This document shows, in pieces, positions 9,709 through 17,500 of a DNA stretch of 64,000 nucleotides. The position numbers and the translations under genes are program-made. The stretch lies in assembly GCF_022045235.1 (NCBI RefSeq), contig NW_027266266.1, positions 48,298,001-48,362,000 on the forward strand, written 5' to 3'. The DNA comes from Haliotis cracherodii (lineage: Eukaryota). Within the stretch, counting starts at the first letter, position 1, and every line of letters begins with the position of its first letter. The notes beneath the pieces are model-generated. The model was not told the DNA's origin and made no database searches. It was given only the letters and a program-made list of their open reading frames with translations.

Positions 9709-9976
9709 TGTTTTATAGGAGAGGCACTGACACCCTGCCTCCCGGTTGGTTCGCCAGGCCGCAGCTCCGATAGGTTCGTTCCGGGGCCTGGCCCGCACCT
9801 CGGTTATCCAAAATGGACCGACCCCTGTGTTTCTTTTCCATAGGAAATGGATTTTACCATGGGAGAGAAAGCACAACCCCGGTTCGGCCAATCAGAGTCC
9901 CGCCTGGCCCGAGCGCCGCCTCTGATTGGTCCGCAACCCAGGCTTCGGATTGGTCCGATTTCGATCCGGTTTTTTT
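9709..9976 (-). promoter_or_regulatory. Element promoter module copy 1 (multiple CCAAT boxes + TATA)
   Basis: Paralogous to 14175-14410 and 17265-17500; CCAATCAGAG...CTCTGATTGG pair; CTCCTATAAAA. Confidence 0.75.
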
Positions 9977-10627
9977 CCTTGGGTAGCCTTGGTATATTTT
10001 TAGGTAGACGGTCGTCTGAATGCTAAAGGAAAGGTGGACCTTCATAGGTAGACATGAACGTGGGAATGCCTACGTGATGTACGTTGTGTCACCCCCATGC
10101 CAATCGGCATGTCATGTGTGTGTGTGTGTGTGAGTGTGTATGTCTTCAAACAGACGTTGACGTTGATGTATAGAATAGCGTGTTGTCAAGCAAAACGTGG
10201 TGTCCTGTGTGTGTGTGTGTCTACAACCATGGATGTCGTATTGAGATGAATAGAGAAAGATCGATACACCTGCTCGACGTTTGCACATGTCATGGACTTC
10301 GTGTCGCGATGTGAACGTCATGTACTTTGTGTGTTGCCATGCAAACGTAGTGTCATGTGTGTGTGTGTGTTTTCAAATTATTATTATTATTATTATTTAA
10401 GGATACCGAGGTGTTGACACCCGTGTAAGTCGACAGACGTACTGTGACACGTGTTTTCATGCATACGTGATGTTTGACGTGGTGTACTACGTGTCTCTAT
10501 TGATCTATTGATATATCTATTTATTGTATTTTTAGACGTGTGTCTCCAAGAGGTCTAGGGGAGGGTGTGGGTTCTTTGTTTTGGAGGGGTGGGGTTGGCA
10601 AAGCAAAGGAGGAAAGTTGTCTTTTGG

Positions 10628-13600
10628 GTGAAAGTCTACAGTCAAGAGGTGGACCAGAGACTGTTGTACAAGTGTGATGAGGCTCCACCCCACGCCACCG
10701 TGCTACATGTATATCATCATGATCAGCACTACGATGTCATCACTTCCATGCCCGCTTTTTATAGCTCTAACCATTACTGCGAACGCTGCGACAAACGTTA
10801 CGATCATCCCGAAACCCATCCCTGCACCAAGGAATACCGCTGTCACCGCTGCCTCCACTCTAGCTATTGCAAGCCCCAGGAAGAGCACGGGATCCCTTGC
10901 TTGACATGTCAACGTTGGTTCTCCAATCAATCGTGTTACACTCAACATCTCCAGTCACCGTCAGAGGGAAAACCCAGCGCCTGTTAATCGATTCACAGGT
11001 GCCCGACCTGTTTTCATCTGGTCCGCGTCTTGGAGACCCCCATGGTTCACCACGAGTGCTTCGACGAAGAACATCCCTGCTTGGTGTGCCGAGAACCCAT
11101 GACCCCAGACCATCGCTGTTACATGACGCCTCTCCGTGAAGAAAACGAGGAGGAGGAGGAGGGGGAGGGAGAGGAAGCGGAGGAGGAGGGGGAAGAGGAA
11201 CAACATCACGTACTAGACAATGTCCAATACGCCTTCTACGATTTTGAATGCATGCATGACACGGGGGAACACATTCCAAATTTGTGTGTGTTGCAACTGG
11301 GATGTGGACGGTGCATCAGTGAAGTCAGCAAGGACTTGTGCGAACACTGTCCATGGAGAGAAGAAGGGAATGGTCCCAGCCGTGAGATCGTGTTTCGAGG
11401 CCCCACCACGCGACATGATGTGTGTGTGTGGTTGACCACGTTGGCTGAAAAACCCAAGAAGAAGCCCCACCAAGAGGAAGAGGAGGGCAGCACACGCAAG
11501 GGGACAACAGACCGCCTGGGGAAAAAAAGAAAACGGGATGACACCCCCTCAAGAAAGTACGCTTCCAAACGCTTCCAAACGCTTCCAAACGCTTCCAAAC
11601 GAGGCGGAGGAGGGGGAGGGGAAAGAGGTCATGGAAGTGGAGAAAACAAAGAAGCCAAAGAACAAGAACACCACTTGCCATACAGTCCCGAAGGAGGATC
11701 GCATTTATGTGATGGCCCACAATGCACGATCCTATGATTTACACTTGATCCTGAAGGGTCTGTCCCCCCTCCTGGTGACACTCCCCACCAAGATCCGACA
11801 TGGCCAACGCATTTTGCAGATGACCCTGGGACGGTTGTGTTTCGAAGACAGCTTAAATTTCATCCCTTACCCCCTGAAAGCCTTTCCGAAGAGCTTTGGG
11901 CTGAGAGAAATGAAGAAAGGGTACTTTCCGCACTTTTTCAATACGGGAGTCAACCAGACCTACAGAGGTCCCTATCCACCAGCCGTCACGTACGATCCCG
12001 ATGGCATGTCTCCCGCGGAACGCACAGTCTTTCTCCAGTGGCATACTCAAAAAGTGCAAGAAGGAGCTTTGTTCGACTTACAAGGAGAACTTTTAGCTTA
12101 CTGCCAGAGCGATGTAGACATTTTGAGACGGGGATGCGCTGACTTCCGACAGAACGCCATCCACTCGGTTGGCATGGATCCCTTTGTGGAAGTGATGACA
12201 GCTGCTGCGTTCACCATGAAATCCTTCCGAAAACACGACCTGAAACCCAATACCATCGCCATTCTTCCACCTCAAGGCTACCAACCCAAGAGAAACTATT
12301 CCCAGGCCTGTATGCACTGGCTCCACTATCTGATGGAAACGGACTCCCATCTGCACCTCCAGCACGCCAGGAATGGAGGTGAACAAGAGTTCACGTGTGG
12401 AGAGGGCCACCATCCGTACAGCGTGGATGGCTACGATCCAGCGACAGGCACCGTCTACGAATTCCTGGGCTGTTTCTGGCATGGGTGCCAGGCCTGTCAC
12501 AAGACCCGACGTGGAGAACCGCATCCCGTCCTGGGCACGTCGTTGGGAGCCCGTTACACCGACACCCGCTACCGCTTGAGTCTCTTGAGTCAACACCCTG
12601 AGGTGAAACGGATCGTCACCCTGTGGGAGCACGAGTTTACGAAAATGCAACGGGAAGACTCCGCTCTGCGTGCTTTCTTGCAGGGACCCCGCTGTATCCA
12701 CGTCCCCGGGCCGCTCAACCCTCGCGACGCCTTCTATGGAGGACGCACCAATGCGACGCGATTATGCTATGAAGCCCAAGAAGGTGAAACCATCAAGTAC
12801 ATCGATATTTGTTCCCTTTACCCCTACATTTGTAAGACCGGAGCGTTTCCCACGGGACACCCGACCCTTCTCCATCAACCCCCTGTGGACACGTTGTTTG
12901 AACTGAAAGGCCTGATCCAATGCCGTGTCCTACCCCCGAAACGACTCTACCATCCGCTACTGCCTTACAGATCGGGTGGCAAACTGCTCTGTCCTTTGTG
13001 CCGTACGTGTGCGGATGCCCGGTCAGACTCCCCCTGCCAGCACACGGACGAAGAGAGGTCATGGGTGGGGACGTACGCCACCGTAGAACTTCAGGAAGCC
13101 GTGAAGAAGTATGACTACCGGGTGCTTCAGATCTACGACGTTTGGCATTTTGACACTTTTGCACAGCATGACCCCGACACCCAGCAAGTGGGACTCTTTG
13201 ACACTTACATCGATCGGCATTTCAAGGAGAAGCTCGAAGCCAGCGGATACCCCGAGGGATGTACGGATCACGACGCTTACGTCCAGGAAATCTACGACAA
13301 AGAAGGCATTGTGTTGGACAAGGATCGCATCGAAAAAAATCCAGGACTTCGCACGATTGCCAAGATGCAACTGAATTCGCTCTGGGGCAAGTTTGGACAA
13401 CGGGTAGACTACAGTCAGAACCTCTATATCAGCCATCCTGTACAGTACTTTGCCTTGTGGAGGGATGAACGCAATACCATCGAGGATGTGACCGTTGTCA
13501 ACGAACACATGGTGGAAGTGACCTATACCCATCAGAAAGAATACCAAACCCCTCATTCTCATTTCAACGTCGCCATCGCCGCTTGGGTCACCGCCCAAGC

Positions 13601-14126
13601 ACGTCTCAAGCTGTACGAGACCCTTGCCCTGGTGGGCCGCAGTGTCTTGTACTTTGACATGGACAGCGTCATTTACATTCATCGACCCCACGACGCGAAT
13701 CCAGAGCTGGGCCATTCGTTGGGTGAGATTACGGATGAACTGGACGGAAACACCATCAAGACGTTTGTGTCGGGAGGTCCCAAAAACTATGGCTACGAGT
13801 TAATGAACCCCAGACCCGATGGAACGCGCACGACCTGCAAAGTGCCAGGGTTCACTTTGAATTACCGAAACCAACACCATCTCAACTTTGACACCATGAA
13901 AGGACTGATACTGGGACAACAGCCTGGGAAAGAGGGGGAGAAAATCAGTTTGGATTACCCTCATCAGATCATTCGAAAAGCACCTCGGCACGAAAACGCA
14001 CTTGTGACCCGACCCTCCCAAAAAGACTATCGTACCGTGTACGACAAGCGACGTCTTGTCTACGACGAAACCACAGGGCTGCCTGTAGACACGCTTCCCT
14101 TTGGGTACAGAGACGACTTTCTATAA
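10628..14126 (+). pseudogene. Protein-primed family B DNA polymerase (pPolB), 5'-truncated, with one stop and one frameshift
   Basis: Exo I YDFE (11237), Exo II HNARSYD, Exo III YCQSDV; polymerase motifs DICSLYP, KMQLNSLWGKFGQ, YFDMDS, GPKNY and the C-terminal YDKRR...TLPFGY. In-frame TAA at 10985-10987; frameshift at the 10-bp repeat 11561-11600. Confidence 0.92.
11561..11600 (+). repeat. 4 x 10-bp tandem repeat GCTTCCAAAC causing the pPolB frameshift
   Basis: Four exact copies; the frames on either side differ by 40 mod 3. Confidence 0.9.
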
Positions 14127-16528: not shown

Positions 16529-17059
16529 ATGGAGCAAAGACGTTCTATGAATGCCATGTCATCCTCCCGAGATGTCGTCACCGATTCCGAGTGGGTGTCT
16601 GATAAGGCGGGAGAACAAGAAGCGAGAAAACGTCCACTCTTTATGGACGACACACTCTTGATGGACGACACATGGCGACTCAGTGACATTCTGGAGAGAT
16701 CTTTTCCTTCTTACACCTTGTGTCATCCTTCTCATCCCAACTATGATTCATTTCAAGAACGTCTGAGGTCTTTTCAAACGTGGCCTAAACAGATGACCCA
16801 GACCCCTTATGACATGGCCATGGCTGGCTATTTCTATCCAGGAGGAGGTGACTGTGTTCTCTGTTATTGCTGCGGTGTGACACTCCGCCAATGGGAAGCC
16901 ACAGACCAACCCTGGAAAGAACATCTGAAGCACGCCAAAGTCCCCTGCGAATACTTGTGTGTGTTTTGTCCTGATGGAGAAGTGAACGAAAGATACAGAC
17001 GTTTGGTGTCCCAAGAAGCACGGAAGAGAAGAGTCGAGTGTCTTGTACACCCCAAGTGA
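16529..17059 (+). CDS. Single-BIR-domain inhibitor-of-apoptosis (IAP)-like protein, no RING
   Basis: ERLRSFQTWP...MAMAGYFYPGGGDCVLCYCCGVTLRQWEATDQPWKEHLKHAKVPC; upstream CATAAAAG (16478) and TGACGTCA (16401). Confidence 0.9.
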   Translation: MEQRRSMNAMSSSRDVVTDSEWVSDKAGEQEARKRPLFMDDTLLMDDTWRLSDILERSFPSYTLCHPSHPNYDSFQERLRSFQTWPKQMTQTPYDMAMAGYFYPGGGDCVLCYCCGVTLRQWEATDQPWKEHLKHAKVPCEYLCVFCPDGEVNERYRRLVSQEARKRRVECLVHPK

Positions 17060-17264
17060 CAAAGTTTCTTTCTTTTTTTCAAAGTGTACAGACGTTCATA
17101 CCCTCGTGGTCACCCCCGTGGTCACCCATCGTGTTCACAAAAATCACAGGGATGTCCCCCCTCATCCTGTGACTTTTGTTTTGTTGTGTTGGTACATGTG
17201 ATCAGGGGGATTAAAAAAAAAGAAGTTGAACTCATAGCCGTGTTATGTTGTCTGTAGGATGAAG

Positions 17265-17500
17265 AAAAAAACAAAACAGGATCGAAATGCACACCCCGAT
17301 AAAAACTGATTGGCCGAACCGGGGTTGTGCTTTCTCTCCCATGTTAAAATCCATTTCCTATGGAAAAGAAAAACAGGGGTCGGTCTGTTTTGGAAAACCG
17401 AGGTGCTGGCCAGGCCCCGGAACGAACCAATCGGGGGCGCTGCCTGGGGAACCAATCAGGAAGCAGGGTGTCAGTGCCTCTCCTATAAAAACAAAACAAG
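17265..17500 (+). promoter_or_regulatory. Element promoter module copy 3
   Basis: CTGATTGGCCGAACCGGGGTTGTGC...CTCTCCTATAAAA, nearly identical to copy 1; TATA at 17484. Confidence 0.75.

Follow-up and report, generated by a model that had tools for sequence, protein, structure and literature searches.

How does a virus-like mobile element in an animal genome arrange the expression of its own genes, and what part is played by a promoter-like block that it carries three times? The question is raised by a Polinton/Maverick copy of 9,777 nucleotides (nt; 9.8 kb) from Haliotis cracherodii. The copy lies at positions 9051-18827 of a 64,000-nt stretch of contig NW_027266266.1 (assembly GCF_022045235.1, positions 48,298,001 to 48,362,000), here called the window, and contains all three blocks. 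The block is very probably an RNA polymerase II (Pol II) promoter with CCAAT/NF-Y boxes and a TATA box. A joint reading, in which this duplicated promoter is twice paired with a histone-type 3′ end and would yield histone-like messages coupled to S phase, is rather likely, with appreciable doubt.

A sequence-only reading of this DNA had proposed three copies of one block, and local alignments together with blastn against the window recover all three at their proposed places and on the proposed strands:

9708..9977, minus strand: promoter-like block copy 1, with three intact CCAAT boxes, two mutated proximal ones and TATAAAA at 9717
14175..14410, plus strand: promoter-like block copy 2, with a perfect inverted CCAAT pair and TTTTAATA at 14401; it has a counterpart after PolB in the gene model P0013
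17265..17494, plus strand: promoter-like block copy 3, homologous from 17306, with CCAAT at 17309-, 17427 and 17452 and TATAAAA at 17484

In local alignments, copies 1 and 3 are identical at 173 of 188 positions (92%; 9895-9708 vs 17306-17494), copies 1 and 2 at 177 of 210 (9977-9766 vs 14175-14387), and copies 2 and 3 at 100 of 127, so that all pairs fall between 79 and 92%. The blastn E-values within the window are 4e-72, 1e-53 and 4e-22, and the same search finds no fourth copy in its 64 kb. The proposed extent of copy 3 holds from 17306 onward, but its 5′ part from 17265 has been replaced in this element copy. Contigs from four of 24 listed sequencing runs were compared with the element (X2 is a DNA run; X15 and X16 are guessed to be RNA), and joints in X2 contigs (17306-14200/14222) indicate that other genomic copies retain this 5′ part.

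The motif RRCCAATSR, taken here to be the NF-Y consensus, occurs seven times in the three blocks and eight times in the 9,777-nt element (the eighth site is in the right terminal repeat), compared with seven times in 54,223 nt of host DNA. In 2,000 shuffles of the blocks, its mean count was 0.16 and its maximum 3. The sites lie upstream of the TATA box, an arrangement that is weaker in copies 1 and 2; in copy 3 the TATA box follows the proximal CCAAT box by 32 nt, and the similarity between copies 1 and 3 stops about 8 nt past it. The inverted CCAAT pair of copy 2 is as perfect as had been claimed, with 14-bp arms at 14218-14231 and 14254-14267. Each block does carry several CCAAT boxes, but both TATA-proximal ones are mutated in copy 1 and the proximal one in copy 2. 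The short distance expected between TATA box and ATG is likewise present in copies 1 (55 nt) and 3 (46 nt) but not before the annotated gene of copy 2: the ATG at 14476, 67 nt behind the block, opens a frame that ends after 57 codons, and the start of the annotated gene is 221-233 nt downstream. Copies 1 and 2 also share AAACACA, which is presumably H1-box-like.

Conservation of the block as coding sequence, which would have spoken against a promoter, was checked by alignment and rejected: almost every frame is interrupted by stops, the three copies have no open frame in common, they differ by indels of 1-2 nt and mismatches show no codon periodicity. The block is non-coding. It was also discarded as a known RNA, having no match in Rfam. 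Within the abalone family it is kept: within the gene model P0013 it directly follows PolB and matches copy 2 best (E 5e-22, compared with about 1e-8 for copies 1 and 3), and it is also read within P0003, from a copy with a PolB that is 82% identical. The proposed promoter is supported by its anatomy, by this conservation in abalone copies and by a spliced transcript behind copy 2.

The most telling feature of the element had been overlooked in the sequence-only reading. Histone 3′ stem-loops lie behind the open reading frames (ORFs) that follow copies 1 and 3, at the terminal repeats:

9321..9662, minus strand: ORF1, 113 amino acids (aa), two CxxC motifs, intronless; no homologue found; covered by a guessed-RNA contig at 9335-9702
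9270..9315, minus strand: histone 3′ stem-loop and downstream purine box, 16-mer at 9295-9310, 35.3 bits with RF00032, 10 nt past the ORF1 stop
17530..18099, plus strand: ORF3, 189 aa, CCHC zinc knuckles (PF00098, E 6e-12) and a basic stretch also present in PolB, intronless
18260..18305, plus strand: histone 3′ stem-loop and downstream purine box, 16-mer at 18265-18280, 36.1 bits with RF00032, 165 nt past the ORF3 stop; signal translated in frame in P0124
10560..10631, minus strand: diverged remnant of a third 3′-end cassette, downstream side only, 75% to 9215-9287; hairpin and gene deleted in this element copy
9051..9313, no strand: left terminal inverted repeat, a 99.6% inverted match to 18262-18528 (268 nt), with its outer ~300 nt gone; an empty-site contig joins 9050 and 18828
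18262..18827, no strand: right terminal repeat, with the stem-loop, a 39-nt array (18512-18704), a cluster of transcription-factor-like motifs and an ACTACT end; junction 18827/18828

Both 16-nt stem-loops have conserved flanks and pass the Rfam RF00032 cut-off of 34 bits (36.1 and 35.3 bits), and the stem-loop motif matches the 64-kb window twice, compared with 0.06 matches expected. They form the inner edge of the terminal repeats, on the same strand as and downstream of the block-driven ORF3 and ORF1, and the units behind copies 1 and 3 point outward. The 16-mer of the element is identical to that of the histone genes on contigs L117 and L123. An AAAGA lies 15 nt past the stem, compared with 12-16 nt in the histone genes of L110, L113, L117, L123 and L129, and eight of the ten positions at +13..+22 past the stem are purines, as in histone genes; other histone loci have purine-rich boxes of a different spelling. 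As far as sequence can tell, both units are intronless and lack a poly(A) signal: up to the ends of the element, no poly(A) hexamer occurs in the 270 nt beyond ORF1 or the 728 nt beyond ORF3, and no GTRAGT splice donor is found in either unit, while hexamers are present at gene 2 and at the BIR gene (both described below). In Pfam neither ORF1 nor ORF3 shows a histone domain, and the units do not encode histones. An LYCPE in ORF3 was set aside as a functional motif, since it overlaps a knuckle cysteine and is probably incidental.

Other copies of the family extend this pattern. The protein P0124, an abalone relative 67% identical to ORF3, ends in the translated stem-loop, so the signal is kept. 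At the third, diverged cassette, contigs of other copies run on into the hairpin (joint 10584-9278; loose ends 9269/10631). An X15 contig has a different gene end before the hairpin, and another contig has a different sequence behind the block's TATA box (30 letters each). After the right-hand signal, contig depth falls in both guessed-RNA runs (56.7 to 4.25 and 8.0 to 1.8) and not in DNA (9513 to 10552), which is a hint of an RNA end, contigs being unable to show ends.

Behind copy 2 lies a gene of a different kind:

14622..15793, plus strand: gene 2, spliced, with an intron at 15161-15291, an optional intron at 15522-15864 and poly(A) hexamers at 16085, 16238 and 16243

A GT..AG skip of 343 nt (15522-15864) is seen in X15 and X16 (depth 49.4 and 13.7) and not in the DNA run X2, and it takes out an acidic and CxxC part of the protein. 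A relative of gene 2 in Haliotis rufescens has two RefSeq isoforms, X1 with 333 aa and X2 with 248 aa, and the difference between them is this same part. The short form presumably parallels the 13S/12S splicing of E1A. The gene 2 message is probably polyadenylated. The long form contains a degenerate xxCxD motif, an acidic run and two CxxC; a strict LxCxE was not found in it, relatives having MVCDD, LVCDD or MVCND with the paired CxxC present. Gene 2 has no Pfam, PDB or Atlas match. Predicted folds are of low confidence both for ORF1 and for the zinc part of gene 2 (predicted local distance difference test scores of 43.7 and 42.9). The end of the zinc region (15660-15950) seems duplicated, with two similar C-H-V-C...D-C-T-C...H-L/I-L-W stretches, and the protein P0129 has a single hybrid-like form.

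One further gene of the element stands between gene 2 and copy 3 and has an upstream region of its own, without the block:

16529..17059, plus strand: BIR (IAP-type) gene, PF00653 E 2e-19, with a CRE-like site and CATAAAA upstream

Its upstream region (16390-16540) holds the CRE-like TGACGTCA, and the CATAAAA is 51 nt before the ATG. The start context CATCATG is common to several element genes. The three genes behind the blocks are mutually unrelated, as had been stated, with no blastp match among them. The further proposal that the promoter serves to recruit captured genes is not supported, because in the searches run the homologues of the three block genes are confined to abalone records or absent, part of ORF3 is also found in the PolB of the same element, and BIR, the only host-like gene, lacks the block. 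Co-regulation of all three copies is doubtful as well, because the units of copies 1 and 3 lead to histone-type 3′ ends and a spliced gene follows copy 2.

The route by stem-loop and U7 small nuclear ribonucleoprotein (snRNP) is described as a pathway special to replication-dependent histone messages, which lack poly(A) and peak in S phase (PMC5706932 and PMC13525598, in the parts available). Applied to the abalone element, the following sequence of events can be proposed. The family would have duplicated a Pol II promoter block, predicted to fix start sites and to be bound by NF-Y, and would keep it before three small accessory genes. Each end of the element would then form a unit like a histone gene, consisting of promoter, short intronless outward ORF and, on the inner edge of the terminal repeat, stem-loop with purine box. 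The ORF1 and ORF3 RNAs would be cleaved behind the hairpin by SLBP and U7 snRNP of the host, giving non-polyadenylated messages that would be made and stable mainly in S phase, when nucleotides and replication factors would be on offer to a self-replicating element. The 3′ ends at the hairpin may also prevent transcription from reaching the terminal replication origin. The middle copy would drive the conventional spliced, polyadenylated gene 2. If this is true, a virus-like element would provide its non-histone genes with S-phase timing and with export and translation that need no poly(A), and such messages would escape poly(A)-selected RNA sequencing. The element may in this way time its own genes to the DNA-copying phase of the host. 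The expression of animal Polinton genes has been little described, and here both promoter and 3′ end are explicit.

Several observations weigh against S-phase-coupled, histone-like expression. The element copy is decayed; copy 1 of the block has mutations in the two CCAAT boxes next to its TATA box, and copy 2 has a degenerate TATA box. An X16 contig (14174-14629) crosses the whole of copy 2, which means that RNA or DNA continues across the block. Neither a start nor an end is marked by raw reads, the sole raw RNA run (small-RNA run X21) contributing seven reads and no piles. No homologue of ORF1 was found in the searches run. The block has no blastn similarity to the histone promoters on nine animal contigs, none known to be abalone, and its capture from histone genes such as these was rejected for this reason; capture from the abalone's own histone genes stays conceivable. 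A histone-like character is accordingly demonstrated for the 3′ end alone.

The remaining objections also favour an alternative in which the block is a promoter and the stem-loop ends transcription to protect the terminal origin, or came along as a passenger that was acquired once and spread with the repeat, so that the messages are not timed to S phase. The two hairpins are not independent, because they are one sequence duplicated with the 99.6% terminal repeat. The spacing of 10 and 165 nt between stop codon and stem is atypical, the 16 histone genes measured having 21-47 nt; the gene model P0124 reads through the hairpin, and none of 98 other PolB loci, many of which lack ends, has the hairpin. 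This alternative is nevertheless unlikely: the third, diverged cassette is internal and far from the termini, the purine box stands at histone spacing, different genes end in the hairpin in other copies, and intronless, hexamer-free units are found only where the hairpin is present. Less plausible still is that the block was multiplied passively by rearrangement, with copies 1 and 3 as relics of a longer terminal repeat whose gene was swapped on one side; sharing it would then have no regulatory meaning, and some copies would be dead. Copies 1 and 3 are indeed inverted, 92% alike and near opposite ends, this element copy has suffered several deletions, and CCAAT cores of copy 1 are mutated; yet copy 2 is internal with a position-specific counterpart in P0013, the similarity ends just past the TATA box, and the layout recurs in other runs in the multi-copy family. 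Such a route may well be the origin of copies 1 and 3 without excluding function. Finally, it is very improbable that the block acts mainly as a hairpin, be it in replication, in recombination or as a 3′-end signal of PolB or BIR upstream. In favour of such a role, copy 2 folds as DNA (15-bp stem, z -4.0), PolB has no poly(A) hexamer before copy 2, and X16 contigs continue from PolB into the block and through it. Against it, both arms are consensus CCAAT boxes, the greater part of the conserved length (up to the TATA box) is outside the hairpin, BIR has its own hexamer and every copy points at an ATG.

The element that carries these promoter and histone-like units is a G+C-rich island (46-55%, compared with about 37%). 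Its terminal inverted repeats match over 268 nt at 99.6%, within the 100-1500 bp of Polintons, with a shortened left arm, and it has a protein-primed family B DNA polymerase (PolB; PF03175, E 1e-34), the gene of which is broken in this copy:

10632..14126, plus strand: protein-primed PolB, broken; PF03175 E 1e-34; first ~240 aa of the family protein gone, a stop near 10985 and a frame break near 11560-11600

The closest relatives of this PolB are Haliotis proteins (90-95%), followed by invertebrate Polinton and adintovirus polymerases (40-45%); a single-sequence PolB scan of viral contigs gave no relatives among five candidates. No retroviral-type integrase was found in the element, where 367 ORFs from 83 PolB loci, integrases included, match only PolB; in other copies of the family such a gene may lie in the part that is deleted here. 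ATPase, protease and major and minor capsid genes were not found by Pfam or ORF comparison, in which distant forms could escape, little unassigned room being left. The right end retains ACTACT, the left end is lost, and the empty site shows none of the 5-8 bp target-site duplication expected of Polintons. (The end motif of Polintons is taken to be AG...CT.) All 30 of 30 bins of the element are covered in the DNA run X2 by many variant contigs, and a single X2 contig links 9050 to 18828, with 19 other letters at the joint and without duplication. Because of these variant contigs, the empty-site contig and the losses in this copy, the element is a single truncated, polymorphic insertion from a multi-copy abalone family, and it is classed not as an intact Polinton but as a derivative that has suffered deletions. 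Matches of the element outside PolB in tblastx were set aside, being short pieces with linked E-values.

The right terminal repeat (18512-18827) contains four YY1-like sites in the 39-nt array, an NRF1-like site at 18723, CRE-like sites at 18751 and 18806, an E-box at 18765 and a CCAAT at 18782; the motifs look like those of housekeeping promoters. The pair of CCAAT and E-box recurs in two of 98 PolB loci (L038 and L040), and in L040 it adjoins an ACTACT end. PolB (11525-11572) and ORF3 (18013-18060) share a basic stretch of 30 aa that resembles a nuclear localization signal (81% in DNA, 63% in protein), which suggests shuffling inside the element.

Compared with known systems, the element resembles molluscan Polintons/Mavericks (adintoviruses) of the PolB-C/pPolB2 group with a VSR domain in its protein-primed PolB (about 40-45% identical to other invertebrate members), its terminal inverted repeats, its IAP gene and a CxxC candidate regulator, as far as the accessible portions of two accounts describe them (10.1101/2023.08.22.554363; PMC8502044). 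Unlike Polintons, the abalone copy has no integrase, ATPase, protease or capsid genes, and no target-site duplication is seen, its left end being lost. The repeated CCAAT/TATA block and the histone 3′ ends are unmentioned in the same portions of both accounts, and the words 'promoter' and 'stem' have 0 matches in that of PMC8502044. Gene 2, with its xxCxD-type motif, acidic run and paired CxxC, is similar to the adintovirus 'Oncoid' genes as outlined in section 3.2 of PMC8502044, but it lacks a strict LxCxE, a CK2 or a CR1 motif and lies downstream of PolB. The outer units are like metazoan replication-dependent histone genes (RF00032; PMC5706932 and PMC13525598 in their available parts) in being short and intronless, with a TATA promoter, an identical 16-nt hairpin, canonical flanks, the same purine box distance and no poly(A) signal. 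They differ from them in encoding no histones, in lying within a mobile element, in their stop-to-stem spacing and in a promoter that cannot be aligned to the histone promoters compared.

Reuse of a promoter motif is already known, as short motifs, in virophages and Polinton-like viruses, where one promoter signal precedes several genes, for instance the early motif of PgVV-14T (10.1101/2022.07.28.501842, in the part consulted). That motif is 8 nt long and is read by giant virus machinery, whereas the abalone block is a duplicated unit of 190-270 nt with host Pol II motifs. Literature searches returned no paper on Polintons with CCAAT promoters or histone stem-loops, and none of the titles listed dealt with histone ends on genes of mobile elements; these searches did not extend to Repbase reports, supplements or subscription papers.

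Among other Polintons, an internal-repeat screen of 59 PolB loci of at least 5 kb, seven of them inspected by eye, found one (L037, with an rve integrase) that has a CCAAT array and TATA box twice, before PolB and before another gene, with 48 nt common at 92%. This array is unrelated to the abalone block. Duplicated CCAAT promoters are therefore not unique to the abalone family. In L037 (900-1250 and 6760-7060) and L046 (3090-3450), five to seven CCAAT boxes with a TATA box, partly duplicated, stand before PolB and a minus-strand gene. The 98 PolB loci scanned for the hairpin amount to 727,835 nt and include 15 weak, probably non-Polinton ones; the Rfam stem-loop was likewise found in none of 12 PolB loci. 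Among the PolB loci examined, the histone 3′ end is rarer than the duplicated CCAAT promoter.

A scan of genome contigs for the stem-loop motif gave 38 rows on 21 contigs, of which nine contain histone genes (recognised by eye) and serve as controls. On six of the 21, a non-histone ORF ends 19-27 nt before the stem-loop, which passes the Rfam cut-off in five of the six cases; the remaining six have no ORF upstream. The strategy may be recurrent, because these six contigs of one motif scan have the histone end behind non-histone genes, several of them genes of mobile elements. It is conceivable, and somewhat short of an even chance, that the abalone family carries expression slots, with a fixed NF-Y/TATA promoter, a fixed histone 3′ end and an exchangeable cargo ORF, for SLBP/U7-dependent, S-phase-timed expression without poly(A), and that it would exemplify a use of the histone mRNA end that is more widespread in the mobile DNA of animals and has gone unreported (DDE_Tnp_4 and MADF transposons and a gene-dense, virus-like contig).

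The individual contigs differ in the gene before the signal. A DDE_Tnp_4 (Harbinger-type) transposase gene (L132:890-1884, plus strand) is followed by a histone stem-loop with purine box, as are MADF genes on the animal contigs L104, L114 and L125. A RING-finger gene (L134:141-893, minus strand) has a histone stem-loop 19 nt behind it. Its contig is intronless and densely packed with genes, among them a protein kinase gene and large orphan ORFs, and looks like a fragment of a large DNA virus. An orphan ORF of 99 aa with a TATA promoter (L127:90-514, minus strand) has the top-scoring stem-loop of the set (43.4 bits). Among viral contigs the stem-loop had a single match, on an unrelated phage-like contig (L001), which was taken as chance.

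Elsewhere in the window lies an LTR (long terminal repeat) retrotransposon (31025-40617), with direct repeats separated by 8,287 nt and with gag (33737-34930) and pol (34963-39279) ORFs that look intact. Inspection by eye alone further points to an ORF resembling a glycosyltransferase, two Tc1/mariner-like remnants, the remnant of a reverse transcriptase, a tandem array of 37 nt and a TRIM-like ORF with RING/B-box, among the positions 6619-7320 (minus), 20589-20987 (minus), 42847-43347 (plus), 52218-52958 (plus), 59093-59817 and 61426-62673 (minus).

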